From Pontiella sp. (lineage in GTDB: Bacteria; Verrucomicrobiota; Kiritimatiellia; Kiritimatiellales; Pontiellaceae), in NCBI GenBank assembly GCA_050290185.1, contig JBNKHE010000007.1:128001-192000 (forward strand): a DNA stretch of 64,000 nucleotides. Reading direction: 5' to 3'. Below the pieces are notes generated by a model. The model was given only the letters and a program-made list of their open reading frames with translations. It was not told where the DNA came from and ran no database searches. The position numbers were made by a program, and so were the translations under genes. Shown here in pieces: positions 22,846 to 49,158 of the stretch (positions are counted from its first letter, which is position 1; every line of letters begins with the position of its first letter).

Positions 22846-23556
22846 GTGTCGCATCCGTTGGAACCGATTGTCGCTTTGCAGAAGAAAGATCGTAGACTTA
22901 TTAAAATCATGCGGGAAATCCGCGACATCCCCCAGCGCAAGAATGACATCGAAGCGCAGCTGAGCGGGTCCAAGCAAAAGCTGGATATGGCGTTGGACAG
23001 CAAGAAACACACCGAGGCCGTACTTCGGGACGTCGAACTGGAGATCGAGTCCTGCAAGGAAAAGGTCACCAAGTACAAGAACCAGCAGATGGAGGCCAAG
23101 ACCAACGACCAGTACCGTGCTTTCGTCAAAGAGATCGGAGTGGTCGAGGCCGAAATCAATCAGCTAGAGGACAAGGAACTCAAGCTGATGGAGGATCTCG
23201 AGCAGGGCAAGAAGATTGTGGCCGACTGCGAAGAGCGGCTGAATACGGAAAAGGCCGGGATTGCCGATGAACTTGGTGAGCTGGATGACCGCACCAAAGA
23301 TCTGATGGAACGGCTGGAATCGCTCAAGGCGGATCGCGCCAAAGCCGCGGCACTCTGCGACAAGGCTCTGCTCCAGAAGTACACGCGCATTATGAACAAC
23401 AAGCGCGATTTTGCGGTGGTCATGGTGGAATCCGGTGTTCATTGCGGTGGATGCCACATGAAACTTCCGCCTCAGGTGATCCACGATGCGCGCAATCCGA
23501 CCAAGATTGTGGGTTGCAACTTCTGCGGGCGCATCGTCTACAATCCCGCATCGTAG
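22846..23556 (+). CDS. Coiled-coil protein with C4-type zinc ribbon (DUF164-like)
   Basis: Long coiled coil, CGGCHMKLPPQ...CNFCGRI. Confidence 0.85.
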   Translation: MSHPLEPIVALQKKDRRLIKIMREIRDIPQRKNDIEAQLSGSKQKLDMALDSKKHTEAVLRDVELEIESCKEKVTKYKNQQMEAKTNDQYRAFVKEIGVVEAEINQLEDKELKLMEDLEQGKKIVADCEERLNTEKAGIADELGELDDRTKDLMERLESLKADRAKAAALCDKALLQKYTRIMNNKRDFAVVMVESGVHCGGCHMKLPPQVIHDARNPTKIVGCNFCGRIVYNPAS

Positions 23557-23633: not shown

Positions 23634-23982
23634 AGCAGTCAGGGTGTATCGGTCGCTCTTCGCCACGGTGGAGGGAGGAAAGTCCGGACTCCAAAGGGCA
23701 GGACGTTCCGTGGTTAACGCGGGAACCTCTGTGCGATATCGCAGGGGATGGAAAGTGCCACAGAAATTATACCGCCCCGGCTTGCCGGGGTAAGGGTGAA
23801 ATGGTGGGGTAAGAGCCCACCGCCCCGAGGGCAACCGAGGGGGCAGGGTAAACCCCGTCCGGAGCAAGTTCAAATAGGCGGCGATGATGCGGCCCGCATC
23901 GCCAATAGTCGCGGGTTGAACGCATTAGATAAATGACCGACCCCGCAAGGGGAACAGAATCCGGCTTACCGCCCTGTCTGCT
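23634..23982 (+). ncRNA. rnpB: RNase P RNA, bacterial type A; 3' half (from ~23807) apparently phage-supplied
   Basis: GAGGAAAGTCCGGAC, AGTGCCACAGAA, GGGTGAAA, GGTAAGAG, GGTAAACCCC, GGAGCAAG, AGATAAATG, AACAGAATCCGGCTTA; terminal P1 helix. Confidence 0.97.
23807..23826 (+). repeat. attL core: GGGTAAGAGCCCACCGCCCC
   Basis: 20-bp exact match to 61608-61627; identity with the right end begins here. Confidence 0.85.
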
Positions 23983-23999
23983 TTTTCTATTTTCAAAGT

Positions 24000-24047
24000 A
24001 TAAACGCAACATAAACGCCTTGCGTCGATTGAATATATCAAATATAC
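24000..24047 (+). promoter_or_regulatory. Putative integrase arm-type sites (ATAAACG x2, ATTGAATATA)
   Basis: The same motifs, with the same 11-bp ATAAACG spacing, recur at 61520-61555. Confidence 0.55.
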
Positions 24048-24056
24048 AAAATCGGC

Positions 24057-25130
24057 ATGGCGCTGTTTAAGCAAAAGACCTCTGAAAACTGGTGGATTTC
24101 TGTCTATCGCAAGGGACAGCCGCGCAAGTATGTTCCCACGGGTACGCCGGATCGGGAAAAGGCGGAGGCGATTGAAAAGCTGGTGTTGTCATCGTATCGC
24201 GGCAATCTGGAGCGGGATCGGTTGATTGCGGCGCTCGATTCGCTGATGGGCTGGGATGCGGTTGATGGATTGCCGATTTCGGAACTGTGGTCGACGTATT
24301 TGAAGACGAAGCCCAGGGCGGGTGAGCATACGATCAACCAGCGCCGGCTTATCTGCGAGAAGCTTGTGGCCTACCTTGCGGATCATCATCCGGCTACCCT
24401 GATGCTGAACGAGGTAACCCCGCAGCATGCGCAGGCTTTTTCGGATTGGGTGTTGAATGAAAAGGGCGGGGCCGGAAAGACGCACAACAACCGCATGAGC
24501 AACATAGCCACGGTATTCGGTGCCATTGTGGTGCGGGCAAATCTTCGGAACAATCCTTTCGGGTTTCTCGAAAAGCTGGACGAATCGGACAGCCGGTCGG
24601 GCCGTCCGTTCTCGGCGGATGAACAACGCCGGATCTTCGAGCGGTGCGCGGTGGTAGGTAATGACTGGCTGGCGATCTGCACGCTTGCCAAATATTCCGG
24701 CCTTCGTTTGATCGACATGGCCTTTCTTGCATGGGATCAGGTGGAGGATGATGTGATCGATCTGACCCCATCAAAAACAAAGCGCCACGGAATAAAGGTG
24801 CGGATCCCGCTGCATCCAAACGTGCGCAAGGAACTTCGCCTGCTGGGCCGCAAGGGGGATTATGTTTTTCCGGTGCTGGCCGAGCGGTACAGCACAACGT
24901 CTCCGAAGTCGCAGTTCATGGAAGAGATCATCCGTCCGCTGGGGATCGATATGGATGGCGCGAAGGTTAGTTTCCATTGTTGGCGCCACACATTCAGAAC
25001 GATGCTTGCGGCGGCCAAAGTTCCCCAAGAGGTTGCGATGAAGCTGGGCGGCTGGACCAACCAAAGCACGGCGGAAGTCTACAACCACGACTTTACCCAG
25101 CTTGAAGCGGCCATTGGCGGGTTGGAATAG
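24057..25130 (+). CDS. int: Tyrosine recombinase / phage integrase
   Basis: N-terminal arm-binding-like domain; catalytic R (SGLR), K (KTK), HxxR (HCWRH), W (LGGW), Y (EVY); adjacent to attL. Confidence 0.93.
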   Translation: MALFKQKTSENWWISVYRKGQPRKYVPTGTPDREKAEAIEKLVLSSYRGNLERDRLIAALDSLMGWDAVDGLPISELWSTYLKTKPRAGEHTINQRRLICEKLVAYLADHHPATLMLNEVTPQHAQAFSDWVLNEKGGAGKTHNNRMSNIATVFGAIVVRANLRNNPFGFLEKLDESDSRSGRPFSADEQRRIFERCAVVGNDWLAICTLAKYSGLRLIDMAFLAWDQVEDDVIDLTPSKTKRHGIKVRIPLHPNVRKELRLLGRKGDYVFPVLAERYSTTSPKSQFMEEIIRPLGIDMDGAKVSFHCWRHTFRTMLAAAKVPQEVAMKLGGWTNQSTAEVYNHDFTQLEAAIGGLE

Positions 25131-25139
25131 GAAACTCGT

Positions 25140-25535
25140 TTAAGATCCTCTGCGGATTGATTCCAGGTAGCCGAAAACATTATCTATCGGTTCACCTGAG
25201 TCGACTTCGACGGCTTTTGCTATCCGATCTATTCTGAATGTTCGGACATCCATCCGGAGCATGCAGAATGCGCGGAGTAGGTTGGAGTTTGGATAGAAAG
25301 CAATGGTGTTGATTTCGCGGGATGTTTTTTCGCCATAGACGTCGGTGTAGTTGATCTGGATGTTTCGCTTTTTTACCTGGACCGGCGCTTCACGAATTTT
25401 TGATTCAGATTTTTTCTTTTCAAGCCGGTCCCTGATTCTGCTTTTTAGATTACGGAAAAACAGGATGGTTGAGACCAGTCCGATCAGCGCGAATAGAAGG
25501 ATGATCCCTATCAGGATATTGATGAAAATGTCCAT
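25140..25535 (-). CDS. Membrane-anchored WYL-domain protein
   Basis: ATG overlaps the upstream stop (TAATG) and has SD GGAG; N-terminal TM helix; INYTDVYGEKTSR...LRAFCMLRMDVRTFRIDRI. Confidence 0.75.
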   Translation of the reverse strand: MDIFINILIGIILLFALIGLVSTILFFRNLKSRIRDRLEKKKSESKIREAPVQVKKRNIQINYTDVYGEKTSREINTIAFYPNSNLLRAFCMLRMDVRTFRIDRIAKAVEVDSGEPIDNVFGYLESIRRGS

Positions 25536-26278
25536 TAATACTCCGTCCATGATGTGACTTTTCCGTTCAGCGTGTGGATAAATCGCATGGTATTGCTGAC
25601 GTGGCTGCCAGTGACGTAGACGGATCCGTAACTGTACTGCTTGGTAACACCCATGGAAGAAGTGTGCTCGGTGCAGTCTTTGGGTTTTCCCCATGTTGCA
25701 TAGATTCCAAGTTCCGGCATTCCGACTGCCAGCTTTCCACTCAACAAGGCATCCGAGTATTTTTCCGGAATACCTTTTTCTTGAAGTGCGACAACATACA
25801 TAACCTTTGTGCGTTCAATATCCGGCGTTGCCCCACCGGGCAATACTTTAAATTCGAGCGGGACGTGGCGGTACTGTGGGTGATTAAGCCAAAACAAATC
25901 TTCCGCCAGGTCATACGCATCGGATGTGCTAATCCATTCATTTAGCATTTTTTCCGGCATATTGGCGGCGGCAATGTTCTTAGAACCAAGTGCTTGAATT
26001 TCGGTTTTGCTGTAACCCTTTAACTCCAGCGCTTTTTGAAGGTGGTCTATAAAGCGCGGATCAACCTTGTTTATTTTGGTGATGCGCGGATAGCCGTAGA
26101 CCGTGTAGGTGATGCCGCTGATTCCGTTTTTCAGGTGGTAGTAATCCGATGCGATTTTCCACCCGGGATTATGTTCAACCCAGCCGAAGTTATTGGCCTG
26201 CGATTCGTCGAAACCGATATTCGTTGCGCATCCGGTGAGCAGGATGGCGGTTGCGAGTGCTGCAATGACTTTCTTCAT
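25535..26278 (-). CDS. Lipoprotein (C-terminal BamE/BLIP-like motif)
   Basis: MKKVIAALATAILLTGC lipobox; VGMP...WGKP...NGKVTSW. Confidence 0.7.
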   Translation of the reverse strand: MKKVIAALATAILLTGCATNIGFDESQANNFGWVEHNPGWKIASDYYHLKNGISGITYTVYGYPRITKINKVDPRFIDHLQKALELKGYSKTEIQALGSKNIAAANMPEKMLNEWISTSDAYDLAEDLFWLNHPQYRHVPLEFKVLPGGATPDIERTKVMYVVALQEKGIPEKYSDALLSGKLAVGMPELGIYATWGKPKDCTEHTSSMGVTKQYSYGSVYVTGSHVSNTMRFIHTLNGKVTSWTEY

Positions 26279-26300
26279 GTTGTTCCCCTGATTCTGATTT

Positions 26301-26696
26301 CTATTGATCGGCCACGAAGCCGAATTGCTCCAGTAGCTGAATGGCGAGCTTCTGCTGGGACGCGGTTGCCTTGGTGCGCAGGAAAATCGCGGCACGTTCA
26401 TAAACATCCATGTAAGAAGCAGATTCTTCAGCAAGCCCTTTCATTCCGTTATTCGGAGCTATACTGTAACTGATTTGCAAAAGCTCCAGCAAAGAAATTC
26501 CTGCCAGTTCGGCAATCCTCTCGGCGTTTTCATCATCAATATCCTTCGCGGTGCCTGAGATCCACCGGCTAACGGTGGCATGCGAAACCCCTACAGCTTT
26601 GCCAAAGGTCCGGTGATTAAATTGCCTACCTGCTGAATCGGTGCGTGTGCGTACCATGTTGCCGATAAACTTCTGAAGTGCTGGTGTATTTTTCAT
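26301..26696 (-). CDS. CI-like XRE-family repressor
   Basis: HTH FGKAVGVSHATVSRWISG; divergent from the early lytic operon; no peptidase domain seen. Confidence 0.8.
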   Translation of the reverse strand: MKNTPALQKFIGNMVRTRTDSAGRQFNHRTFGKAVGVSHATVSRWISGTAKDIDDENAERIAELAGISLLELLQISYSIAPNNGMKGLAEESASYMDVYERAAIFLRTKATASQQKLAIQLLEQFGFVADQ

Positions 26697-26784
26697 AATC
26701 TCTCCCGGTTGGTGGCTACGCTTATACCTAATAAAAACAGGGGCTCAATGACAAATGGTTAAAAAAGTTAAAATAAAAACTTGC

Positions 26785-26801
26785 GGTACGCGGTGCGTAC
26801 C
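26785..26801. promoter_or_regulatory. Putative operator palindrome GGTACGC-GGT-GCGTACC
   Basis: Perfect 7-bp inverted repeat between the divergent repressor and cro-like genes. Confidence 0.6.
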
Positions 26802-26834
26802 ACGTAAACCATAACTACCGAAAGGAAATAAATC

Positions 26835-27038
26835 ATGAGCAAAGCCGACACCAAGAAAGCGCAGATCACCAAGCCGATTCTGCTTAAAGAAAAAAACGGC
26901 GAGGTAGCAGCGGTGCACGAAGCCGCCGAGATTCTGGGCATGACATCCGGAACGCTCGCCCGCATGGCCGTACATCTCGGGATGAACACCCCAGAGATGA
27001 AGAACCTCATCGAGAAGGCGAAACACGCCCACGCATAG
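26835..27038 (+). CDS. Small Cro/Arc-like DNA-binding protein
   Basis: First gene of the rightward operon; SD AAGGA; AAEILGMTSGTLARMAV. Confidence 0.6.
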   Translation: MSKADTKKAQITKPILLKEKNGEVAAVHEAAEILGMTSGTLARMAVHLGMNTPEMKNLIEKAKHAHA

Positions 27039-27082
27039 GACTCTCAAAATGATTCTCCTGGTTAACAGCCAACAACACCCCG

Positions 27083-27149
27083 CGCGCGCCGGTCGGCAGA
27101 ATAAATCCGGTTACCCCCTTGGCCGGTTGCCGGTCGGCGCGCGTTTTTT
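27083..27149 (+). terminator. Long hairpin followed by T6 (early terminator/attenuator)
   Basis: CGCGCGCCGGTCGGCA...TGCCGGTCGGCGCGCG, a 16-bp stem with two G-U pairs, followed by TTTTTT. Confidence 0.6.
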
Positions 27150-27167
27150 CCCCAGCACGAGGAAGTC

Positions 27168-27425
27168 ATGAGCATTGAAGAAATCAAAGAGGCGGTTCGG
27201 ACGGTTATCCGCGATGAGATGGTGATGGCTACGGTGGTTCCGGATTTTGCGGGATACGCCTATTTCAAGATTCGTTTTGGGATTGCCCAGCCGACGCTGA
27301 AGAAGCTGGCGGACAACGGGCATGTGCGCCGGAAGAAGGTCGGGGAGGCGGTACAGGCGCAGGCGCTCTACAAGGTGGCTGATGTTGAGGAGTGGTTCGA
27401 GTCGGACAAAGGGGTCGAGGCGTGA
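27168..27425 (+). CDS. Excisionase-like DNA-binding protein
   Basis: FGIAQPTLKKLADNGHV...LYKVADVEEWF winged-helix pattern; SD GAGGA. Confidence 0.55.
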   Translation: MSIEEIKEAVRTVIRDEMVMATVVPDFAGYAYFKIRFGIAQPTLKKLADNGHVRRKKVGEAVQAQALYKVADVEEWFESDKGVEA

Positions 27426-27607
27426 AAAACGAGGAACTAGGCACTGGGCAAGAGGCGCTAGTGGAGTCGGCTGGGGAACGTCTTTACAACCGGATGCGGG
27501 CCGAAACGAGGGGCGGCGTTCCGTGGGCGGAACTGCGTCCGGCGGTGCGTGACGCGATCGAGAAGCACGCCGCGCTTTCCGAGCGCGAGGGAAAGGCGGC
27601 GGCATGA
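27422..27607 (+). CDS. Phage hypothetical protein
   Basis: GTGA/ATGA translational coupling to its neighbours. Confidence 0.5.
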   Translation: MKNEELGTGQEALVESAGERLYNRMRAETRGGVPWAELRPAVRDAIEKHAALSEREGKAAA

Positions 27608-27804
27608 TGAATCTTTCGGTGTGGACGAAGACCAGGTTCCTTGAGCTGCCTTTTGGCAATCGGATCCGCGTCTCGGAGATCCTGCTTGCGGCGGTGCTGG
27701 GGCTTCTGGTGGGGGTGGTTTTCTGGGCGGCGGTTTTCGGGATGGCCTTTTCGGCGGAAGAGCTTTCACCACAGAGGGCACAGAGCAACGCAGAGGGGAA
27801 TTGA
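27604..27804 (+). CDS. Phage hypothetical membrane protein
   Basis: One TM helix; coupled start. Confidence 0.5.
   Translation: MMNLSVWTKTRFLELPFGNRIRVSEILLAAVLGLLVGVVFWAAVFGMAFSAEELSPQRAQSNAEGN
27764..27795 (+). repeat. Dispersed CACAGAG repeat, copy 1
   Basis: TTTCACCACAGAGGGCACAGAG is identical to 32301-32322. Confidence 0.8.
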
Positions 27805-27918
27805 TATACCCACCAATGAGCGAGGGCAGCTGGTGCGCTGATGCCGCGCACCCCGCCCACGGGAACGGCCAACCGTGGGCGGAGTATTCAAGGGATGGTC
27901 GAAGAAAGGGAATGGGAC

Positions 27919-28101
27919 ATGGTGAACGATAAGATTCGTTGTTTGATGAGCGATCCGGAGCACTGCGACTTCGAAGAACTTCCGGATACGGGTGGGCGCC
28001 GGTGTTCGCTTGAACACGGCATGTGCCATCAACAGGAGCCGCACAGCAGAGGGAACGGTAAACCTGTTGATTACCACGCACGGAAGGCGGTGCAGCTGTG
28101 A
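27919..28101 (+). CDS. Small Cys-rich phage protein
   Basis: Four Cys; stop overlaps the next start (GTGA). Confidence 0.45.
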   Translation: MVNDKIRCLMSDPEHCDFEELPDTGGRRCSLEHGMCHQQEPHSRGNGKPVDYHARKAVQL

Positions 28102-28721
28102 TCAACGAAGCAACCATTCAGGCAAACCGCGAATACATTATTATTCGCCTCAAGGAGATCAACCGCGTAGGGATGCCGGGTCTGATTCAGGAACTTGATG
28201 ACCTTGGCTTTTTCCGTTCGCCGTGTTCCACCAAATACCACGGGGCCTACACGGGCGGTTTGGCCCAACACTCATTGGATGTGTTTGGCAAGTTCGTTGA
28301 GCTTACGAGCCTGTGCGGTGTGTTCGTGCCGGCTGATTCGGCGGTGATTGCGTGCATCCTTCACGATCTATGCAAAGCCGGTGCCTACGTTGGCAATGCC
28401 TATCCCTACACCTACCGCAAGGAACACCCCAATGGACACGCGGCGCTTTCGTTTCATCGGATTTCAAAGTTCATCGAACTGACCCCGCTCGAATCGGATT
28501 TGATCCGCTATCACATGGGTCTTTACGGCACCCACGCCCACAGCGTCCGCGGCGAGTACGGGGTCGATGAGTTCATGGCCGCACGGGAAAACCCGGCTGT
28601 AAAGCTGATGTGCTTTGCCGATGAGCTGGTGACGCTTCAGGAGAAGGCGACCGAAAAAGAGCACATCGAAAAATATGGATCCCTGCTTCCGGCGGAGATG
28701 GTTAACGGGCGGGAGGGATAG
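28098..28721 (+). CDS. HD-domain phosphohydrolase
   Basis: SPCSTKYHGAYTGGLAQHS, LHDLCK, GH, IRYHMG, FAD. Confidence 0.85.
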   Translation: MINEATIQANREYIIIRLKEINRVGMPGLIQELDDLGFFRSPCSTKYHGAYTGGLAQHSLDVFGKFVELTSLCGVFVPADSAVIACILHDLCKAGAYVGNAYPYTYRKEHPNGHAALSFHRISKFIELTPLESDLIRYHMGLYGTHAHSVRGEYGVDEFMAARENPAVKLMCFADELVTLQEKATEKEHIEKYGSLLPAEMVNGREG

Positions 28722-28723
28722 CC

Positions 28724-28849
28724 ATGAAGGGGGAAACCACGAAAAACACGAAGGACACGAAAAAAGACCCGGCTTTCGTGATCAGGTTTGTTGATACCTC
28801 CGGCGCAACCCATGACCTGTATCGCAAGATTTTCAGAAGGCAAGGCTGA
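28724..28849 (+). CDS. Small phage protein (41 aa) containing CACGAA repeats
   Basis: SD GGAGG; stop overlaps the next ATG; below the ORF-track length cutoff. Confidence 0.4.
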   Translation: MKGETTKNTKDTKKDPAFVIRFVDTSGATHDLYRKIFRRQG

Positions 28850-29040
28850 TGCCGGATCGATCGAACATGCCAAAGACGGGGCGGTGCATCGTTTGTGAAA
28901 CGGTGGGAGCGGTTGCCGGCACAAACGCCAACGGAAGGCCGCTTTGCCAAGGGTGCATCGACTACATGAACGGGGAACACCTGAAACGCACGGTTCCGAA
29001 CAAGCGCGGGTATGGGATGAAGAAAGGGGAAGCAGCATGA
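28849..29040 (+). CDS. Small zinc-finger-like phage protein
   Basis: CIVC...CQGC. Confidence 0.5.
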   Translation: MPDRSNMPKTGRCIVCETVGAVAGTNANGRPLCQGCIDYMNGEHLKRTVPNKRGYGMKKGEAA

Positions 29041-29204
29041 GCACGAAGGAAATTATAGATAGGCCGCTATCAGAAAAAACGCTCAATCGGATTGAGAATG
29101 GAAAGGTTGAATTTTTGACGGTATGGCCAATATGCCAGCCTCTCGCGCCAAGGCACATCGCTTCCAAAAGACTAATGGATATAGTGACTGGCGGTGTGAA
29201 ATGA
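29037..29204 (+). CDS. Phage hypothetical protein
   Basis: ATGA coupling at both ends. Confidence 0.45.
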   Translation: MSTKEIIDRPLSEKTLNRIENGKVEFLTVWPICQPLAPRHIASKRLMDIVTGGVK

Positions 29205-30961
29205 GTCCACAAGCGGGATTTGGGTTTCTGGATGAATGGCGGACGGAATCAAAACCAGTTGCGAAAGATGGCGAGTTGGTGGTGGATCTGTTTTGCGGCG
29301 GCGGCGGGGCATCGGTCGGGATCGAGGAAGCGATCGGAACTGCGGTAGACATCGCAATTAACCACTCAAAAGATGCGATCTACTACCACGAGCGGAACCA
29401 TCCGACCACGGAGCACTACACTACCGATGTCTTTGACGTGAATCCGCTGGGCGCAACGCGCGGTCGACCGGTGGGACTGCTTTGGCTTTCTCCGGACTGT
29501 ACGCACTTTTCAAAGGCGAAGGGCAAAGCCCCGAAAAAGAAGAACATTCGTAGCTTGGCTACAGTGGGTCTTTGGTGGGCGCGCCTTGTTCGCCCGCGGG
29601 TGATCGTGCTGGAGAACGTCGAAGAGTTCATGACGTGGGGCCGGCTGGACAAGCGGACCAACCAGCCAGACAAACGCAAGAGCGGCGAATATTTCCACAA
29701 GTTCGTGCGCCGGCTGGAACAGCATGGCTACCAGGTTGAATGGCGTGTACGCAAAGCATGCGACCGAGGAGCCCCGACAATCCGCAAACGGTTCTATCTG
29801 GTTGCGCGGTGCGATGGTGAGCCGATTGTATGGACAAAGCAGACGCACGGCAAACGCCGCGGCCTGAAGCCATATCATACCGCTGCCGAGTGCATTGACT
29901 TCAGCAAGCCGGCGGTTTCCATCTTCGCCACAAAAGAAGAGTGCAAAGCGGCTGGAATCCGCGCGGTGCGCCCATTGGCGGACAACACCATGCAGCGGGT
30001 TGCTCGCGGGGTCTGGAAATACGTCATCGACAATCCGGATCCGTTTATCGTTCCGCCCGGGAAGATGCCCTTCATCACGGAGATGGCGAACGGTTCAAGC
30101 CAGCGCAACATGCCGGCGGATGAACCGCTTCGGACTGTATGCGCCCAGGTCAAGGGCGGTCACTTTGCCTTGGTAGATGCGCTCCTTGAAAAGCACGCGC
30201 CGGCGGAAGTTCAAAGCGCCTTCATTGCGAAGAACTATACCGGAGTGACCGGTACCGACCTACGCGCGCCGCTGGGGGCCGTCACCGGTATTGATCATCA
30301 TTCATTGGTTGCCTGCCATCTGGAGCGGATGCACGGAACGGCGAAGGGCGATCCGATAACCGAGCCGATCGGGGCAATTCTGGCGGATGGGTTGCACCAC
30401 GGGCTCGTGGCCTGCCATCTGGAACAGATGAACGGGGAAAGTACCGGGCTCTCTGTAAATGATCCAATCACGGCCATTACCGCCCAGGTGAACAAGCACG
30501 CTTTGGTTACCTCGCACCTGATGAAGTACCACAAGACGCAGGGCAATGAATCGCGGTGCCATGATCTGCGTGAGCCCATGCCGACGGTGGACGGAAGCAA
30601 CCGGTTTGCCGAGGTCCGCGCGTTCCTCATCAAATACTATGGGCAGGGATGCGGGCAGATCATTGACGGCCCGATCGGCACCATTACCGCACAGGACCGC
30701 TTCGGGTTGGTTCTGGTGAAGGGAGAGCTTTACCGGATCGTGGATATCCTTCTGCGCATGCTCGATCCCGACGAGCTGCTGAAGTGCCAGTTCGGGCGCT
30801 TTGCCGACGGCTACCAGATTGACGGACTCACGAAAACCAAAGCGGTGAAGATGATTGGGAACAGCGTATGCCCGACCGAAGCCTATGACATCGTGAAGGC
30901 CAATTTTAAGCGGAAATCGGCGCGGCAGCTCCAGGCGGCAGAAGAGGCGGTGGCGGCGTGA
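29201..30961 (+). CDS. DNA (cytosine-5) methyltransferase
   Basis: DLFCGGGG, SPDCTHFS, LENVEEF, RKRFYLVA, IGNSVCP. Confidence 0.93.
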   Translation: MSPQAGFGFLDEWRTESKPVAKDGELVVDLFCGGGGASVGIEEAIGTAVDIAINHSKDAIYYHERNHPTTEHYTTDVFDVNPLGATRGRPVGLLWLSPDCTHFSKAKGKAPKKKNIRSLATVGLWWARLVRPRVIVLENVEEFMTWGRLDKRTNQPDKRKSGEYFHKFVRRLEQHGYQVEWRVRKACDRGAPTIRKRFYLVARCDGEPIVWTKQTHGKRRGLKPYHTAAECIDFSKPAVSIFATKEECKAAGIRAVRPLADNTMQRVARGVWKYVIDNPDPFIVPPGKMPFITEMANGSSQRNMPADEPLRTVCAQVKGGHFALVDALLEKHAPAEVQSAFIAKNYTGVTGTDLRAPLGAVTGIDHHSLVACHLERMHGTAKGDPITEPIGAILADGLHHGLVACHLEQMNGESTGLSVNDPITAITAQVNKHALVTSHLMKYHKTQGNESRCHDLREPMPTVDGSNRFAEVRAFLIKYYGQGCGQIIDGPIGTITAQDRFGLVLVKGELYRIVDILLRMLDPDELLKCQFGRFADGYQIDGLTKTKAVKMIGNSVCPTEAYDIVKANFKRKSARQLQAAEEAVAA

Positions 30962-31188
30962 GTAGGTATGCGCATTTGATCGGCAATCGGCACAACCCGA
31001 AAGGGAATCCCAATCCGGGAAACATGCGTCCATGCATTGTGCGCGATGGTGATGTTGAAACGCGATATCCGAGCGTTGCGGCGGTTGCGCGGGCTCTGGG
31101 AATGAAGCAGGAACAGGTGCATGGGATGCTTTCAGGGCGGTGCGGAAAGCGCAGCCGGTTCAAGGTTGAATATGCGGAAGGGGTGTAA
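30958..31188 (+). CDS. Small HTH (NUMOD1-like) protein
   Basis: YPSVAAVARALGM motif. Confidence 0.5.
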   Translation: MSRYAHLIGNRHNPKGNPNPGNMRPCIVRDGDVETRYPSVAAVARALGMKQEQVHGMLSGRCGKRSRFKVEYAEGV

Positions 31189-31190
31189 GC

Positions 31191-31403
31191 GTGAAGCCAT
31201 TGGATTTGATTCATGGGATTAATGTGCAGTGCGGTTGGTGCCCAACTTCACAGTTCATCGACACATCCGACCGAGACGTGGCGGAGCGTATTGCGAGGGA
31301 AAGTGGATGGCGGAATGTGCGGACCAATGATGAAGAGGGAACAGCGTGCCCTAGCTGTCGGCGTGAGAAGTCTGACGCTGGTGTCATCAAGGAGGTTTGC
31401 TAG
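31191..31403 (+). CDS. Small zinc-ribbon protein
   Basis: CGWC...GW...CPSC. Confidence 0.55.
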   Translation: MKPLDLIHGINVQCGWCPTSQFIDTSDRDVAERIARESGWRNVRTNDEEGTACPSCRREKSDAGVIKEVC

Positions 31404-32149
31404 TGACGCCGTACTACGAAGATTCGAGTTGTGTGATTTATCACGGGGATTGCCGGGAAGTACTGGCGTCTCTGGACCTGCAGGCGGACTTGGTGCTTAC
31501 GGACCCGCCGTACAGCTCGGGCGGACTGACGCGGAGCGATCGGAACCAGAAGACCACGGCGAAATACCAGCTGACATCGAACGTTTCGTATCATCCGGAG
31601 TTTTCGGGCGACAACCGGGATCAGCGCTCGTTTCTGCTTTGGTGTGATTTGTGGATGCGTGACTGCCTGGCGAAGTCGAAGGCGGGCACGGTGCTGATAT
31701 CGTTCACGGACTGGCGGCAGTTGCCGACGATGGTTGACGCGGTGCAGGTTGCCGGCTGGGTGTACCGCGGCATAAACGTCTGGGACAAGACGGAAAGCGC
31801 GCGCCCCCAGAAGGGGTGGTTCCGTGCGCAAGCGGAGTACATGGTACTTGCATCGGCGGGCCCGCTGGATGCCGATCCGACCGGACAGTGTGCGCCTGGT
31901 GTTTTTCGCCAGCGGGTGGTGCCGAATGAAAAACTGCACATGACGGCAAAGCCGGTTTCCCTCCTTTCCTCGATTATCCAGACCTCGCCGAAGTTCCAGC
32001 TCGTGGTGGATCCGTTCATGGGATCGGGCACCACGTTGCGCGCGGCTAAGGATCTGGGCCGGCGGGCGATCGGCATCGAGGCGGAAGAGTGCTTTTGCGA
32101 GATCGCGGCGCGGAGCCTGGAGCAGGAACAACTCGGGCTGGGGGTGTAA
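31397..32149 (+). CDS. DNA methyltransferase (N6-adenine/N4-cytosine, beta class)
   Basis: GDC, TDPPY, H..AKP, DPFMGSGTT. Confidence 0.92.
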   Translation: MLVTPYYEDSSCVIYHGDCREVLASLDLQADLVLTDPPYSSGGLTRSDRNQKTTAKYQLTSNVSYHPEFSGDNRDQRSFLLWCDLWMRDCLAKSKAGTVLISFTDWRQLPTMVDAVQVAGWVYRGINVWDKTESARPQKGWFRAQAEYMVLASAGPLDADPTGQCAPGVFRQRVVPNEKLHMTAKPVSLLSSIIQTSPKFQLVVDPFMGSGTTLRAAKDLGRRAIGIEAEECFCEIAARSLEQEQLGLGV

Positions 32150-32151
32150 TC

Positions 32152-32349
32152 ATGTGCGATTGCTGGATGGAAAAGGGCGTTAAACGGGTTGGGCGGTGCC
32201 AGTACCGGTGCGCGGGGTGCGGCGCTGATATTTCGGACGTGTTCCTGATGGCGGCGGTTGCCGATGAGGCTTTTGCGGACGATCTAATTGAACGTGGGTC
32301 TTTCACCACAGAGGGCACAGAGGGCCACAGAGAAAGGGAACAGGCATGA
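32152..32349 (+). CDS. Small Cys-rich phage protein
   Basis: CDC...CAGC; coupled to def. Confidence 0.45.
   Translation: MCDCWMEKGVKRVGRCQYRCAGCGADISDVFLMAAVADEAFADDLIERGSFTTEGTEGHREREQA
32301..32332 (+). repeat. Dispersed CACAGAG repeat, copy 2
   Basis: TTTCACCACAGAGGGCACAGAGGGCCACAGAG. Confidence 0.8.
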
Positions 32350-32804
32350 GACGGGACATTATTACGGTTGATGATGAGGGCGGCAGGGAGGCTTTAACAG
32401 CGCCTTGCTTCGAGGTTCCGGAAGATCAGGCGATTATCAAGTCGCTGTTCGATGACCTGCTGGACACGGCGAAGTGGTGCGAGCAGCACCATACGATGGG
32501 ATGCCTTGCGGTTTCGGCGAACCAGATAGGGGACCAGTACAACGCCTTTGTCATGAAGTTTGGCAGCGATTGGCTTTCGATCATGAATCCGATCGTTGTT
32601 TCGGCATCGGACCAGAAGCGCCCGAGTGCCGAGCGGTGCCTGAGTCTACCGAAGCGCCCGGCCATTACGCGCATGCGGCACAAGGTCATAAAGATCCAAT
32701 GGACCGACCCGGCCACGGGACGGGAGATGAGCCGGAAGTTCCACGACCGCGATGCGCGGGTGGTACAGCATGAGATGGATCATGGCCGCGGTGTGTTGAT
32801 TTAA
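32346..32804 (+). CDS. def: Phage-encoded peptide deformylase (divergent)
   Basis: SANQIG, MNP, ERCLS, QHEMDH. Confidence 0.85.
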   Translation: MRRDIITVDDEGGREALTAPCFEVPEDQAIIKSLFDDLLDTAKWCEQHHTMGCLAVSANQIGDQYNAFVMKFGSDWLSIMNPIVVSASDQKRPSAERCLSLPKRPAITRMRHKVIKIQWTDPATGREMSRKFHDRDARVVQHEMDHGRGVLI

Positions 32805-32834
32805 CCAATGGGATGAACAGGAAAGGGAAAAGCA

Positions 32835-33251
32835 ATGAAGATAGATACTGGAAATGTGGAACTCGAAGGCGTCGCAGTCTTTTCGGATGGGTCCGGAACT
32901 GCGCTGGAAAATATAGAATGGGCGGAAAAGCACCTTACGAGGAGCGAAGAGGTGATTGCCACGCTGAAGCGCTTTATTGAGAAGCATCTGGAGACCTTGA
33001 AGGGGGTTTCTTGGTCAGTTGGGTATGGTGACGCAGAAATACTTCTTCGGCACGGTTCATATCTTGGAAAGCCCGCCTCTCCGAAGGATATCGCTCGGCT
33101 TTTCCCAAACGCCTGCTGGAAGCGCGAGCAGAAATCATACGACCGCGAGAATATCCATTATGTCGCTGAAGTTGATGGTGTGACGCTCCGCATTGAGTGC
33201 GCCGAGAAGGTTCCCAATCCTACCGCAAAAACCGGTAGGGTGGAGCTGTGA
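32835..33251 (+). CDS. Phage hypothetical protein
   Basis: 138-aa ORF in the operon, coupled to the next gene. Confidence 0.6.
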   Translation: MKIDTGNVELEGVAVFSDGSGTALENIEWAEKHLTRSEEVIATLKRFIEKHLETLKGVSWSVGYGDAEILLRHGSYLGKPASPKDIARLFPNACWKREQKSYDRENIHYVAEVDGVTLRIECAEKVPNPTAKTGRVEL

Positions 33252-34906
33252 AGGCATTAACGATCAAACAGCCTTGGGCGTGGTGCATTGTTGCGGACGC
33301 GATACCGGACAACCTGAAAAAGGACGTTGAGAACCGTTCACGCCGGCTGGGTCATCGCGGCATGTTGGCGATCCATGCAGGCAAGTCATTCGATGATGAG
33401 GGCTATGACTTCATTAAACGTGAATTTCAGGACATCGAGCTTCCATCAAAGGATGAATTTCAAATGGGCGGAATAGTCGGCGTGGTGGACATGGTTGATT
33501 GCGTTGAGCAGTCGGAAAGCCGCTGGTTCTTCGGGCCGTTCGGCTATGTCTTCGAGGAAGCGGTGGAGATCGAATTAATTCCAATGACTGGGAAGCAGGG
33601 GCTTTTCGAGGTTGGTGAAATTAAAATTAAACGGAAGGGAACGGAACAAATGGCAGAAGAAAAAACAGTTGAAGAAGTCGAGCGCGGTGCATGCGGCAAC
33701 AAGGGATGCAATTTCCATGATGATAATCTTCCGGAGAATTGCGGCGGAGCCAATTCGGCAGGTGATCCGGTTTTTTCTGATTGTGAAAAGTGGATGCTTT
33801 GCATCGATTCGCTGCCGAAGGCGGACGTTGTTTCGAAGACGGCGCGGAAGCTGCCGGTAAGGTTGAACGATGCCCAGATCGCCGAACGTGCGCGGGAAGC
33901 GGCGGATATTGTGCACAGTGCCCGCGAACTGGAAGAGAAGATTTCGGCGCTGAAAAAGAGTTACGGCGATACCATCAAGAGTCTACGTGTCCGGGCTGAT
34001 GAACTGAGCGAGGAAATCCATTGCGGCGAGATCGAGCTAAACGTGGATTGCCTGATTCGCAAGACGTTCGACACCGGCCTTTATGAAGTGATCCGGCTGG
34101 ATAACAACACGGTCATTGAATCCCGCCCTCTGAATCCCGATGAACTGCAGGCGGAACTGGATATGTGGCTGGGTCTGGATGAGACCGGCGAATTGATGGA
34201 TATGGCGGAGGCCTTCATCCGGTCAACGAAGCGCGCGACTGCGAGCCATCTACAGCGCAAGTTTGGTCTGGGAGTGAACCAGGCTGAAACGTTGATTATC
34301 GAGCTGGCCCAGCGCGGTGTGCTTGGCCCTGCCGATGACAAGGGCGAGCGCGCGATTCTTGAAATCGAAGCAGAGGAACCGCCCGCCGATCCGGAGGAGG
34401 ATGAAACCTTTCGCGCGGTGTTCGAGGCGCAGGTTCAGGATGCGATTGAGCTCATTCGCAAGTCGGGGCGTGTTTCCACGGCCATGGTACAGCGCGGCCT
34501 TAAGCTGGGTTATACGCGCGTCTGCAAGATTATGGATGAACTCGAAGACCGGAAGATCATCGGGCCGGTGAAGGATAATGCCCCGCGCGATATCCTCATC
34601 GAGGTTGAAGTGCCCGAGCTCGGAAACCCGTTTGAGCTGGTGAACGCCGCGGCATCGATCGTTGAGGCGCTTATGCAGCGCCGTGAAGAACTGAAGCAGC
34701 TCCCGGGCGATTATGAAGAGGCGATCGGTGCCTATAAGCTGGCGGTGCTTGAAGAGATGGAGAAAACGAAGGGCGAGCCACTTAATACTGCCCTTGATCT
34801 TGCCCGGAAAGTCGAAGCCGATGGCGGCGCCGCAATTGAGGTCAGCATGATGCTGGTTGCCGGCCTTGAAGTGAGCGAGGAAAAGCCCAAATCCGAGGAA
34901 GAGTGA
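33248..34906 (+). CDS. ASCH-domain protein fused to tandem FtsK-gamma-like domains
   Basis: MKALTIKQPWA...KDVENRS...IHAGK (ASCH); ASHLQRKFGLG and STAMVQRGLKLGYTRVCKIMDELEDRKIIGP (FtsK gamma). Confidence 0.75.
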   Translation: MKALTIKQPWAWCIVADAIPDNLKKDVENRSRRLGHRGMLAIHAGKSFDDEGYDFIKREFQDIELPSKDEFQMGGIVGVVDMVDCVEQSESRWFFGPFGYVFEEAVEIELIPMTGKQGLFEVGEIKIKRKGTEQMAEEKTVEEVERGACGNKGCNFHDDNLPENCGGANSAGDPVFSDCEKWMLCIDSLPKADVVSKTARKLPVRLNDAQIAERAREAADIVHSARELEEKISALKKSYGDTIKSLRVRADELSEEIHCGEIELNVDCLIRKTFDTGLYEVIRLDNNTVIESRPLNPDELQAELDMWLGLDETGELMDMAEAFIRSTKRATASHLQRKFGLGVNQAETLIIELAQRGVLGPADDKGERAILEIEAEEPPADPEEDETFRAVFEAQVQDAIELIRKSGRVSTAMVQRGLKLGYTRVCKIMDELEDRKIIGPVKDNAPRDILIEVEVPELGNPFELVNAAASIVEALMQRREELKQLPGDYEEAIGAYKLAVLEEMEKTKGEPLNTALDLARKVEADGGAAIEVSMMLVAGLEVSEEKPKSEEE

Positions 34907-35364
34907 TGAGCACGGTTTTCGGAGTTTTAGGGGCGCTGGTATTGTCACTTATATTCATGGTTTGGTTACGCTGCATTGCTTGTTTCGTGGTTAAGGCAAT
35001 GGTGCCTGAAATAAAAGAAGCTGAAAAACGGCGTATTCTTATCTCAATGTATCATGCCTCTTGGTGGTATTCGGAAAGTCCGGAGGCCATGCTGGCAATT
35101 CAGACGTTACGGGATCAGTTGGCGCGCGGTAATATCTACCACAACCAGTTGGATCCGCGCGAAGCATGGCGCAAGGCCATTGAAGAGCTGCCGAAAGCGC
35201 CATCCGAATTGGATCGGTTGCGGGAAATCGTAAAGCGCATGGATATGGCGGCTCCGGTTGCCGATGATTCGTGTGATGAACCGGGAATATCGCTTTCCGA
35301 GGCCTACCGCCGGCAGTTGATCGATGAAGGGCATCCGCTATTCACGGAAGGCGGTGCGGCATGA
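34903..35364 (+). CDS. Phage hypothetical membrane-anchored protein
   Basis: N-terminal TM helix; coupled start and stop. Confidence 0.55.
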   Translation: MMSTVFGVLGALVLSLIFMVWLRCIACFVVKAMVPEIKEAEKRRILISMYHASWWYSESPEAMLAIQTLRDQLARGNIYHNQLDPREAWRKAIEELPKAPSELDRLREIVKRMDMAAPVADDSCDEPGISLSEAYRRQLIDEGHPLFTEGGAA

Positions 35365-35993
35365 GCTACACGCCGATGGTTAGCGGGGCGAAGGTGGATC
35401 TTCTGAATCCCGCTCCTGAGTCTATCCGGCTGCTGGATATGTCGATCGGTCTGGGGCGGTTGCCGCGGTATCTTGGGCAATACGACGCACCGCACTACTC
35501 GGTTGCCGAGCATTGCGTGGTGATGGCGCTCCAGGCACCGCGAGAGGAGGCGATTTATCATCTGTTGCATGACGGCCACGAGTATGTGACCGGAGATATG
35601 CCGCACCCCATGAAACAGCTGTTCCCCGGCGTGGTCGAGATCGAGGAGCGGATCCAGTCCGCCATCTATAAAAGCATGAATCTGGATGAGCCGAGTACGG
35701 AGCTGAAGGAACGGATTCACCTCTTTGATATGCGGATGCGGTCAACCGAAAAGCTGTTGATTATCAACGATGATACCGAGTGGGACCATTCAGATCATGC
35801 GCCGCCATTCGACGTGAGGTTGCTGTGCTGGGACTCGGAAACCGCGGCCAGCAAATGGATGGCGCTCTTCGCGGATATCTATGCCGAATACATCCGCAAC
35901 CGCCAAGCGGCGGCTTATAGGAATCTGGATGTTAGGACGGCGGAACAGCGCCGTCGGGATTCCGAGCAGCATTATCAAGGAAAGGTGCGGTAG
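35361..35993 (+). CDS. HD-domain phosphohydrolase (YfdR/YfbR-like)
   Basis: RYLG...YSVAEHC, LLHDGHEYVTGD..P.K. Confidence 0.85.
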   Translation: MSYTPMVSGAKVDLLNPAPESIRLLDMSIGLGRLPRYLGQYDAPHYSVAEHCVVMALQAPREEAIYHLLHDGHEYVTGDMPHPMKQLFPGVVEIEERIQSAIYKSMNLDEPSTELKERIHLFDMRMRSTEKLLIINDDTEWDHSDHAPPFDVRLLCWDSETAASKWMALFADIYAEYIRNRQAAAYRNLDVRTAEQRRRDSEQHYQGKVR

Positions 35994-35996
35994 GGA

Positions 35997-36028
35997 TTTT
36001 CTCACACAGAGAGCACAGAGGCACGGAG
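35997..36028 (+). repeat. Dispersed CACAGAG repeat, copy 3 (variant)
   Basis: TTTTCTCACACAGAGAGCACAGAGGCACGGAG, directly before an ATG. Confidence 0.7.
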
Positions 36029-36178
36029 ATGGATCAGGAACCACTTAATAAGCAGAAGACACCTAATATTTGTACCGAGTGCATGGCGCGTGAGTTTTGC
36101 AGCAGGCGCGTGCTGGTGGAGGGGTTCCTTAAGGTTTGCAGTTATCGGATTCATAAAGACGAAGGCGGTGCGGAATGA
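36029..36178 (+). CDS. Small Cys-rich phage protein (49 aa)
   Basis: MDQEPLN...CTEC...C...C; ATGA overlap with the next gene; below the ORF-track length cutoff. Confidence 0.45.
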   Translation: MDQEPLNKQKTPNICTECMAREFCSRRVLVEGFLKVCSYRIHKDEGGAE

Positions 36179-36495
36179 AGCGGAACATGCACGAGAACAG
36201 TTTGGCGGCCTACGGTCAGGAGCGGGCGCATCTTAGCGATCGCGCCTTCCGGATTTACAAGCTGCTGGCTGAGCATCCGGAGCCGATGACCGATCGGCAG
36301 ATTATGGAGACGCTGGGCTTTCATGAGCCGAATGCGGTACGGCCTCGAATTACCGAGCTGGTGAACAAGCATGGTCTGGTTTGCGAGGTGGGGAAGGTGT
36401 GCTGTCCGGTGACCGGCAAGGCGGTGCGGGAAGTTCAGGCGAAGGTGCATGTATTTCAGGAGGATGCGGCGGGGCAGGGTGCATTTAATTTTTAA
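36175..36495 (+). CDS. Winged-helix DNA-binding protein
   Basis: MTDRQI...NAVRPRITELV. Confidence 0.65.
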   Translation: MKRNMHENSLAAYGQERAHLSDRAFRIYKLLAEHPEPMTDRQIMETLGFHEPNAVRPRITELVNKHGLVCEVGKVCCPVTGKAVREVQAKVHVFQEDAAGQGAFNF

Positions 36496-36512
36496 CCACA
36501 GAGGGCACAGAG
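36491..36512 (+). repeat. Dispersed CACAGAG repeat, copy 4
   Basis: TTTAACCACAGAGGGCACAGAG, directly before ATG 36513. Confidence 0.8.
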
Positions 36513-36731
36513 ATGAAGGTAGGAGATTTAGTAAGGCCTAAAAGTTTCGACCACCAGTTAGCCTCTGGTTGTTGCAGATATGATTTTGCTGTTGTTGTGA
36601 GAATGGAGCCCTTTGCCCTGGTATCCGAAAAAGCGGACATGCTTTGGATGTGTACGGTTAAGGCTGAAAACTTCGAGGTGTTTGGAACAGCAACGCCAGA
36701 AATGCTCAAAAGATGTATGGAGCGGATTTGA
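36513..36731 (+). CDS. Phage hypothetical protein
   Basis: MKVGDLV start; AT-richer than its neighbours. Confidence 0.55.
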   Translation: MKVGDLVRPKSFDHQLASGCCRYDFAVVVRMEPFALVSEKADMLWMCTVKAENFEVFGTATPEMLKRCMERI

Positions 36732-36734
36732 TAA

Positions 36735-37193
36735 ATGAGTACTAAGGCGGGGGCGTTACCACAAAACATCATCGATGCCATGCAACCGGCAGACCGCAAG
36801 CGGCTGGGCCTGAAGAGCACGGATGAACGTGACCAGGCGATCGAGGCCAAGGCGGAAGATGATATTCAGCGGGCGGTTGAGGCGTATTGCGTCCATCTGG
36901 GCTTCGAGAAGCTGATTGCGGAGAACATCCAGCGCGCCGAGGTGCGCCGTGGATATCCGCAGCGCGGGTGGCAATTCCACCTTTCCAAGCTGGGGGCGAA
37001 GAGGAATCCCACGCTTCCGGACATTACCCTTTTTGATTGCAAGACCGGGCGCTTCCTTTGGCTGGAGTTGAAGGCCAAGGGCGGTAAGGCGCGCCCGTTG
37101 CAGGCGGTATTGATTAAGTGCGGTTTCTGGCGCGTGTCCTACAGTGCCGAGGAGGCCTTCGGGATCGTGCAGGATTGGTTGGCAAATGGGTGA
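36735..37193 (+). CDS. VRR-NUC-like nuclease
   Basis: LPDITL...WLELKAKGGK...Q PD-(D/E)xK pattern. Confidence 0.75.
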   Translation: MSTKAGALPQNIIDAMQPADRKRLGLKSTDERDQAIEAKAEDDIQRAVEAYCVHLGFEKLIAENIQRAEVRRGYPQRGWQFHLSKLGAKRNPTLPDITLFDCKTGRFLWLELKAKGGKARPLQAVLIKCGFWRVSYSAEEAFGIVQDWLANG

Positions 37194-37746
37194 TTTGTTT
37201 CCAGGGGCCGGATATTCACACGCTGACTTGGTGCTACGCGCTGAGAAGTGGCTTTATGCTTTCGGGTGCAACGTGGTTTTCCGCGAATTTGTCGCCTACA
37301 CGCCGTCTGGAGAAATTCCAGACGCGATCGGGTGGAAAAGCGGCTTTTCAATACTGATTGAATGCAAAGCCAGCCGCTCGGATTTCCTAGCCGATAAAAA
37401 GAAGCTTTTCAGGAAATATCCAGAGCACGGAATCGGTAGCAGTCGCCTCTATATGTGCCCGCCAGACATAATCCAACCCGAAGACCTTCCGGAGGGCTGG
37501 GGTTTATTGTGGGTGCGTGGAAAGACGGTCGAGCGCGTGGTTGCGCCGAAGGGCAACACCTTCCACCGCTCACCACTGAAGCATTTTCAAGAACGCAGTA
37601 TGCAGGGCGAGGTGGCTTTGTTGGTCTCCGCCGTTCGGCGGCTGAAGATACGCGGTCATTTAGATGAGATTTATGAACCCATGCCGTCAACGCATCGACC
37701 AGTTGAAAGATCGGCGGACTGGTTCATGAAAGGTAGCGGGATTTAG
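37186..37746 (+). CDS. PD-(D/E)xK-fold phage protein (MmcB-like)
   Basis: EIPDAIGW...IECKASRSDFLAD...LPEGWGL. Confidence 0.7.
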   Translation: MGDLFPGAGYSHADLVLRAEKWLYAFGCNVVFREFVAYTPSGEIPDAIGWKSGFSILIECKASRSDFLADKKKLFRKYPEHGIGSSRLYMCPPDIIQPEDLPEGWGLLWVRGKTVERVVAPKGNTFHRSPLKHFQERSMQGEVALLVSAVRRLKIRGHLDEIYEPMPSTHRPVERSADWFMKGSGI

Positions 37747-37794
37747 TTTGGCACAGTAGGTGCGCGTGCGCGCCCATTAAGAGAGCGGGAAGAT

Positions 37795-38976: not shown

Positions 38977-39446
38977 TGGATAATCATGACCGTGAATACC
39001 TGGACGCATGGGAAGACCTCACCCCGGCACAAATTAGGGAGATGAAGGCCGCCGGCATCACCGGCCCGCAACTGATGAGCTATACCACGTTGCGGCCTGA
39101 ATGTACGCACGAAGCATCCGTTCCGCCGGCGGAGCCTTTCGCCAAACAGGTTGACGAGGAAAGAATTTATGAGGTGGTTCGCCGTTTGGTTGGCGAGCTG
39201 CTGGGGCAGACGAACCCGGCGCTTGCGCTTGAGTGCCTGAGTCTGGTGACGGGCATCGGGTACATGGGCAACTCGATGACCGAGATTGCCAAGCGGCATG
39301 GGGTAGGACGTGCGGCAGTTAGCAAGCGATGTGTTCAGCTGTGTGATGCCATCGGGATTGAACCTCCCAGGGCAATGAGATCGAAGAAAGCGAGGAAGAG
39401 TTATGGAGAGCGTGCACGAAATCAGCACAACAAACACGAGCATTGA
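38973..39446 (+). CDS. Sigma-region-4-like HTH protein (possible late regulator)
   Basis: SMTEIAKRHGVGRAAVSKR; located just before the packaging genes. Confidence 0.55.
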   Translation: MMDNHDREYLDAWEDLTPAQIREMKAAGITGPQLMSYTTLRPECTHEASVPPAEPFAKQVDEERIYEVVRRLVGELLGQTNPALALECLSLVTGIGYMGNSMTEIAKRHGVGRAAVSKRCVQLCDAIGIEPPRAMRSKKARKSYGERARNQHNKHEH

Positions 39447-40029
39447 TATATCGCGCATGGGGATCCGGTTCTCCGGTGAGATATCATCGGAGCAATGGGA
39501 AGCGCTCGGGGTAAAGCTCAGTTCCGCCTCGCGCTCGCTCGGGTTCATGATCGGTGATTGGGTCAATGCGGCGGTTGATGGCATGGAAAGCGATGACCGG
39601 TTCGGCAAGGCGATTGAGATGACGGGGCTCGACTACAACACCATTCAACGCTTCTGCCGCGTCGCATCGTTGATCGAGATTGATAGCCGCATTGAATCGC
39701 TTTCATGGGAACACCACCGGATTGTCTCTACCCTTCCGCCGGTGGTGCGTGATGAGTGGCTGGCGTTGGCTGCAAAGCATGGCATGAGCAAACGCCGCCT
39801 TCAGCGCTCACTCAATGCTGGGCGCGTGGTCGATGTCGATGAGATGAAGGCGGCGCCATCGCAGAAGATTGAGACCGTGCATCCGTTTGTTAATCGCACG
39901 GTCGGATTGTTTGTGCGTTGGAAGAAAAGCGGATGGCTGAAGAAGCAGAGCCCCGACCAGCTCCAACGCTTGCGCGCCGATCTTGAGCCCGTCGTGGCGA
40001 TATACAAGGAGCTTGGTGGCGATGTGTAA
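39403..40029 (+). CDS. LmbU-like DNA-binding protein
   Basis: FMIGDW...LSWEHHRIV...WL..A pattern. Confidence 0.5.
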   Translation: MESVHEISTTNTSIDISRMGIRFSGEISSEQWEALGVKLSSASRSLGFMIGDWVNAAVDGMESDDRFGKAIEMTGLDYNTIQRFCRVASLIEIDSRIESLSWEHHRIVSTLPPVVRDEWLALAAKHGMSKRRLQRSLNAGRVVDVDEMKAAPSQKIETVHPFVNRTVGLFVRWKKSGWLKKQSPDQLQRLRADLEPVVAIYKELGGDV

Positions 40030-42887: not shown

Positions 42888-42889
42888 AC

Positions 42890-44338: not shown

Positions 44339-44340
44339 CC

Positions 44341-49150: not shown

Positions 49151-49158
49151 GGTAAATC

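Follow-up and report, generated by a model that had tools for sequence, protein, structure and literature searches.

A prophage inserted in the middle of rnpB in Pontiella sp., with a predicted RNase P RNA of host and phage halves

Prophages and islands located within genes for tRNA and tmRNA are the closest described systems to the locus reported here. According to the accessible part of PMC4383910, their integrase lies beside the regenerated RNA gene, a displaced 3′ fragment of that gene in the same orientation marks the far end, and the lost sequence is replaced from attP. In Shewanella oneidensis, the excision of prophage CP4So from ssrA brings a one-base change that abolishes tmRNA function (PMC5148205, accessible part), the prophage state thus setting the allele of a structural RNA gene. 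RNase P RNA sequence is also carried by large phages: three viral contigs of 55–215 kb (L075, L093, and L094) encode a complete RNase P RNA scoring above the Rfam cut-off within tRNA clusters. In L064, L080, L081, L091, L092, L099, and L113 both end motifs lie 149–409 nt apart among tRNAs with scores below the cut-off, possibly representing minimal forms.

The literature searched, which excludes most subscription papers, yielded no description of phage or island attachment in rnpB. The portions covered of 10.1101/2025.09.16.676606, PMC12424338, and PMC13626063 (one section, one supplement) contain no mention of rnpB or RNase P, and those of PMC7191817, PMC2386152, PMC4256840, PMC6582537, and PMC2864759 mention rnpB in other contexts only. 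The provirus survey of PMC13626063 assigns, in its accessible part, 13.5% of RNA targets to unspecified ncRNAs, so its database may hold rnpB sites; the TIGER database and bioRxiv supplements could also contain them.

The window analyzed here, a 64-kb stretch of a Pontiella sp. genome, contains a prophage inserted in the middle of rnpB. The element occupies positions 23807..61607 on the forward strand (37,801 bp, counted from the identity block at attL up to attR). Between the two rnpB copies, profile matches identify genes for an integrase, a repressor-like protein, terminase, portal, protease, capsid, tape-measure and tail proteins. The direct repeat starts at 23807 and 61608, and its right copy (61608–61782) repeats the 3′ half of rnpB. 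The features of the locus are the following:

22846..23556, + strand, C4 zinc-ribbon protein gene (PF02591), host flank upstream of rnpB; position conserved in relatives
23634..23982, + strand, chimeric rnpB, class A RNase P RNA (RF00010, 244.7 bits at 23636–23984)
23634..23806, + strand, rnpB 5′ half of the host; T at 23639 is found in no relative
23807..23982, + strand, phage-borne replacement 3′ half, 176 nt (P13 3′ strand, P14, P15–P17, P19)
23807..23826, + strand, attL identity block, 20 bp (identity start 23807/61608; junction of the X2 contig)
24000..24037, + strand, putative arm-type repeats of the left arm (ATAAACG at 24000 and 24011; TTGAATATA at 24029)
24057..25130, + strand, tyrosine integrase, 357 aa, right after rnpB (PF00589, phrog_1)
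26301..26696, − strand, HTH repressor-like gene (PF01381, phrog_8/4/3)
27168..27425, + strand, candidate excisionase, 85 aa, a weak match (phrog_66, E 0.014 only)
40203..57582, + strand, head and tail gene block (profile matches)
61471..61498, + strand, predicted terminator-like hairpin upstream of attR
61520..61554, + strand, putative arm-type repeats of the right arm (ATAAACG at 61520 and 61531; TTGAATATA at 61546)
61608..61782, + strand, displaced native 3′ half at attR (5′-truncated RF00010 match, E 7.7e-25)
61784..62449, − strand, LuxR-type response regulator (PF00072/PF00196), host flank after attR

As in the tRNA-gene systems, a regenerated gene stands at one end and a displaced 3′ fragment at the other, both in the same orientation. 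The duplication is 175–176 nt long and runs from the P13 loop on, so it is not a short gene-tail duplication. The range given in an earlier note on this DNA starts at 23827; the repeat is real and begins 20 nt upstream of that point. The empty site is seen in 14 of 17 same-genus loci, where rnpB is directly followed by the response regulator gene, and 10 further loci of relatives have a prophage-free rnpB site; the prophage integrase was found at rnpB in none of the 17. No tRNA or tmRNA gene is present in the window, and GC content is uninformative (54.7% vs. 54.3%). The element works like the gene-restoring prophages of tRNA and tmRNA genes without being one of them, its target being RF00010. 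Unlike the islands treated in the accessible part of PMC4383910, it cuts the RNase P ribozyme gene mid-gene and supplies a 176-nt, 17%-divergent replacement spanning strands of the catalytic core. What is new is that half the ribozyme is replaced by a diverged sister-species allele.

Among the other products encoded in the prophage (29123–36000) are DNA methyltransferases of the C5 and N6/N4 types, a peptide deformylase, a nucleotide phosphatase and a protein in which the FtsK-gamma domain occurs twice. A tail-region protein (58063–60216) with laminin-G and sialic-acid acetylesterase (SASA) domains is a candidate receptor-binding or polysaccharide-modifying protein, and a tail-region gene contains two tandem 87-nt repeats, 87% identical (57759–57932).

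Apart from the match at 23636–23984, no complete rnpB was found in the genome, whose completeness is 95.5%. The covariance-model cut-off for RF00010 is 100 bits; the score of the left gene and the E-value of the truncated right copy show that the match is not due to chance. Helices are named by the E. coli RNase P RNA nomenclature, put onto the Rfam structure. The class A features P4, P6, the L15 GGU and P15–P17 are present in the left gene, as checked helix by helix. P18 is lacking (23921–23935), both here and in the relatives from the order that were aligned, and with it the L18–P8 contact. Besides the elements listed above, the phage-borne half brings the 3′ strands of the long-range helices P4, P2, and P1. 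The displaced half at 61608–61782 has no 5′ half, and no promoter-like site was found for it.

The two 3′ halves differ in 29 of 174 aligned columns (17%), 20 of them in P16/P17, and the helices stay paired in both copies. The remaining differences comprise one each in the P14 internal loop, L14, J15/2, P2, and P1, and one pair each in P15 and P19; identical blocks of 20, 36, and 25 bp lie at 23807, 23833–23868, and 23952, respectively. The changes listed in the earlier note are all in the sequence, and their pairings hold: GCAA vs. GTAA in L14, GCGGC:GTCGC vs. GGAATC:GGTTCC in P16, GATGC:GCATC vs. GGAAC:GTTCC in P17 with a common GGCCC loop, and C-G (left) vs. T-A (right) in P19. The proposed P6 partner of the GGCCC loop, GGGC, is located at 23696–23699, and the L15 GGT and the 3′ strand of P4 are the same in both copies, as claimed. 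In P15 the swap from T-A to A-T (23869/23920 vs. 61670/61720) stands; of the six pairs given for this helix the Rfam structure has four (GTTC:GAAC), and the two extra pairs use L15 bases. Three differences had been missed, in the P14 internal loop (23827), J15/2 (23925) and P2 (23937). In contrast to the one-base change reported for CP4So in the accessible part of PMC5148205, 29 columns differ here and both halves look functional.

The pairing of P1 indicates which half is native. The right copy pairs with the host 5′ strand at 13 of 13 positions (one G-U), while the left copy leaves a T-T mismatch at 23639/23977, as the earlier note had described; the duplex energies are −25.4 and −21.4 kcal/mol, respectively. 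The T at 23639 occurs in none of 39 relatives (G in 34, A in 5) and the A at 61777 of the right copy in none of 38; this T-A pair is thus confined to the 5′ end of the host and the right copy. The P1 T of the left copy would pair with A or wobble with G in all 39 relatives and is mismatched in the host. The right copy is also contiguous with the response regulator gene that follows rnpB at empty sites.

Public sequencing runs X1–X4, all from a single study and possibly with the source sample among them, contribute a further line of evidence. A contig of 5,817 nt from X2 starts to match exactly at 23807 (contig base 5058) and continues to 24566, through the left half into the integrase gene. 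It differs from the window at 14 positions, 12 of them in the integrase and none at the listed left-type places 23879–23911. This contig reads as an attP-type junction of non-host DNA with the left half, a reading based on the position of the junction rather than on the upstream letters: 23807 is the base where the right arm meets attR, and rnpB of another host would match further upstream. A contig from X3 matches exactly over 23833–23985. Host-side contigs match without differences up to 23823 (X1) and 23732 (X2). The integrase contigs differ from the window at 3–16 sites and the long host contigs at none, which indicates that several phage variants coexist.

The P1 pair, the contiguity with the host gene and the attP-type contig agree with the polarity proposed earlier, the right half being native and the left phage-borne. 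The reverse polarity, in which the left gene would be entirely native, with the insertion at or beyond its 3′ end and the right copy brought as cargo by the phage, is highly improbable. It would suit the slightly better pairing of P2 at 23937 between the left copy and the host 5′ strand (G-C, vs. G-U in the right copy), the left type of G006, one of the two closest hosts, and a similar duplication in genome G339 in which the proximal copy has the better P1 partner. However, the private T-A pair of P1 requires the right copy, the non-host DNA of the X2 contig runs into the left half and the integrase at 23807, and a 176-nt half upstream of a 3′-end crossover would restore nothing. Phylogeny is silent on polarity, G006 and G011 being equally close to the host (RpoB identity 96.0 and 95.9%).

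None of the listed contigs of runs X1–X4 bridges attL, and the phage contigs of X1, X2, and X4 differ from the integrase allele of the window at 10–16 sites. These facts would fit a free phage and an empty host joined in silico via the 20-bp or 36-bp block, with no lysogen in the population, although the phage would still target rnpB. Such an assembly artifact is very unlikely: the attL and attR junctions are both on a single contig of the genome assembly, and the shared blocks are just 20 and 36 bp. The word sizes usual in final assembly are longer than 20–36 bp. Depths in X1 are similar (host 8.2, phage 8.0–8.2), which is a hint only. The depths in X2 (phage 10.7–11.9, host 6.7) were considered as a sign of induction, a reading that was not adopted.

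Returning to a phage integrated in the chromosome, the identity between the two ends begins 2 nt before the 7-nt P13 loop GTAAGAG (23809–23815). P13 forms a 6-bp inverted repeat around this loop, whole at attL and broken at attR. Att-site classes with the crossover in a symmetric 7-nt loop (anticodon or T loop) were reportedly defined by Williams in 2002. The GTAAGAG loop is probably the 7-bp overlap at which crossover takes place. The integrase has a complete set of catalytic residues (R217, K240, H307, R310, W333, and Y342), invariant in all 14 aligned homologues, and its nearest named relative, from Pontiella desulfatans, is 57% identical. The tandem ATAAACG motifs, 11 bp apart, and TTGAATATA occur within the window only on the two arms, and probably serve as arm-type integrase sites.

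Related integrases were found at 20 partly redundant loci (27–57% identity). A complete tRNA gene lies within 1.5 kb at 15 of them, just upstream and in the same orientation in 14 and downstream in one; four more loci have a tRNA/tmRNA-like 3′ fragment, and none of the 20 has rnpB. In one pair of such loci (L397/L402) identity starts exactly at the 7-nt T-loop. The simplest reading is that the integrase switched its target from a tRNA hairpin loop to the P13 loop.

Crossover could also have occurred deeper, in the 36-bp block (23833–23868), or the element could have entered by homologous recombination, P13 being a mere edge of the captured fragment. The 176-nt, 83%-identical segment could serve such entry, and two of the 14 differences of the X2 contig could be 23827 and 23832. 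Nevertheless, this course of events is improbable in view of the intact integrase, the matched arm repeats, the symmetric 7-nt loop just 2 nt away from the junction, and the start of identity at the T-loop in related elements.

Site-specific integration at P13 is thus the preferred reading. A temperate phage with an integrase from a tRNA/tmRNA-targeting clade would use the middle of rnpB as its attachment site. Since a cut at P13 would cost the gene strands of its catalytic core, attP would carry the whole 176-nt 3′ half, anything less being lethal; a related host, of the G006 type, would have supplied this half at an earlier time. Integration would yield attL, consisting of the host 5′ half and the phage 3′ half, and attR with the promoterless native half, and excision at the same core would restore the native allele. 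That the phage attaches at P13 of rnpB, brings a 176-nt half in its attP, creates a chimera on integration and returns the native allele on excision is very probable.

The genome encodes RnpA, while PF08745, the protein-only RNase P family, was not found in this assembly (95.5% complete). Given the single complete rnpB, the presence of RnpA and the lack of a match to a protein-only enzyme, the lysogen is predicted to depend on the chimera; in this cell, an essential ribozyme most likely consists of one host half and one half delivered by the phage. The RNA runs screened contain only 5–9% of the sequence words and were left out. Unlike the whole stand-alone genes on L075, L093, and L094, the phage carries a half that would work only fused to the host 5′ half. 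The single U-U mismatch in P1 probably costs little. The earlier note had suggested that the swap could alter tRNA processing; a strong effect appears unlikely, since the conserved positions are unchanged and the L9–P1 contact was of minor importance in three type A RNAs (PMC8457005, accessible part). The predicted hairpin at 61471..61498 would shield the displaced half from phage read-through.

A relative with the 5′ end AGCAGACAGGG had been predicted, and it exists: G006 (locus L294), which is prophage-free at rnpB. It is also the nearest match to the left half, with 11 differences in 174 columns (94% left-like half) against 23 for G011, which supports the proposal that a related host was the donor. 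G011 comes closest to the right half (12 differences; G006 has 23). Among 29 genus loci, the T-A pair of the left P15 is present in G006 only, and the left-type P16 in four, G006 included. Prophage-free relatives of the left type, which the earlier note had counted against its own model, do occur at these four loci, but they mark the donor type and the model stands. The proposal that the half was kept functional is matched by the retained pairs, but these do not show selection on the phage, as most of the compensatory pairs are already present in prophage-free hosts. The compensatory changes between left and right may therefore be largely inherited host alleles, which do not prove selection on the phage, and the 11 remaining differences to G006, which keep the pairs, are compatible with a donor that was not sampled as well as with selection on the phage.

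In the RpoB tree, G006 and G011 are the closest relatives of the host (clade support 99), in keeping with movement of the phage inside a species cluster. For the 3′ half (177-column alignment), AU tests gave no significant result (p 0.06–0.11). A GyrB tree was dropped, as it disagrees with RpoB and GyrB (L356–L385) is only ~60% identical within the genus; RpoB is 93–96% identical among the nearest genomes.

The P13 junction was found in one of 401 genomes of the phylum, the host itself; the confounding of rnpB phylogeny foreseen in the earlier note is thus real here, yet rare. A pattern search of viral contigs gave no P13 junction, and none of 23 metagenome matches was displaced. In the genome collection (at least 120 matches), the matches listed included one displaced half (L199/G339); the other 119 were read as native genes with L13 insertions or genes cut by contig ends. 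G339 is the only one of 401 genomes of its order with the P13 junction. It was rejected as a second example because no integrase was found in the surrounding 12 kb and the polarity of P1 is reversed; its breakpoint gives no support, as the search pattern selects for breakpoints at P13. Overall, no second integrase-bearing mid-rnpB example was found in viral contigs, metagenomes and phylum genomes or among the genome matches listed. No piece of rnpB was found in three viral records with 69–73% terminase identity or in two with a 45% identical integrase, all mostly fragments, and a single 14-bp match (E 0.04) in these terminase- and integrase-related records was dismissed. The 3′ half has no match in GenBank phages; its one plasmid match lies in an ordinary cell-division gene context, and two rnpB matches in G018 reflect an assembly break.

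Several other arrangements of rnpB were noted. At the G339 locus (L301, G339:C183, Bryobacterales, minus strand), a complete rnpB is accompanied by another 3′ half that runs from the P13 loop on (~1990–2190 and 7961–8353), with the copies 5,982 bp apart, the proximal one pairing better in P1, and the repeat reaching into the next gene (86% identical); the cargo, read from translations, includes a multicopper oxidase and a TonB-dependent receptor. At L445 10335–10406 (G033:C33), 72 nt of the 3′ tail of rnpB are duplicated near a contig end, with the full gene on C20 and no integrase found nearby. L286 (G010:C209) contains a partly degenerate second 3′ portion of rnpB at a contig end, then a response regulator gene, and is probably an assembly or binning duplicate. 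In viral contigs L059 and L102 a convergent tyrosine integrase gene of another clade lies ~65 nt or less after an rnpB 3′ motif; no displaced rnpB copy was found in these records, which are fragments. Many native rnpB genes (L162–L281, L302–L324) have a hairpin inserted in L13 just before GTAAGAG; their hosts are Acidobacteriota, Brocadiales, SAR324, Armatimonadota, and others.

By its left-type P16/P17, the left half falls into one group with G006, G001, G007, and G054 within the genus (SH-aLRT 98). The RpoB tree (29 genomes) puts these hosts in three separate places (G006; G001 with G007; G054), and a single clade is rejected (p-AU 5e-5). They are likewise split in the tree of the genes that neighbor rnpB on their contigs, which argues against misbinning. 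Outgroups have the common, non-left type of P16/P17. Some exchange of the P16/P17 module between species is likely, as judged from these trees. After rnpB of the four left-type hosts no arm repeats were found, and the prophage terminase as a query had no match in their genomes. Since no phage scar was found in them, ordinary recombination is as plausible as the phage route.

Recombination in the 36-bp (23833) or 25-bp (23952) block, rather than at the att core, would cure the prophage; the same event would leave the phage P14–P19 in the chromosome and load the host version on the phage. It is possible, though doubtful, that such phages carry ribozyme halves of RNase P from one bacterial species to another, leaving permanent swaps. 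This would explain why the left-type P16/P17 is scattered among prophage-free hosts, against their own neighboring genes. If true, an essential ribozyme used as a phylogenetic marker evolves by virus-mediated module exchange.

The Pontiella element extends gene-restoring integration from the tails of tRNA and tmRNA genes to the middle of an essential ribozyme, and points to a recent switch of integrase target between two 7-nt hairpin loops. Trees of rnpB can be mosaic, and island finders restricted to tRNA and tmRNA genes would miss an rnpB site. In the lysogen, strands of two different origins would have to fold into one catalytic RNA, a natural and reversible half-swap in which the modularity of RNase P RNA is directly testable.
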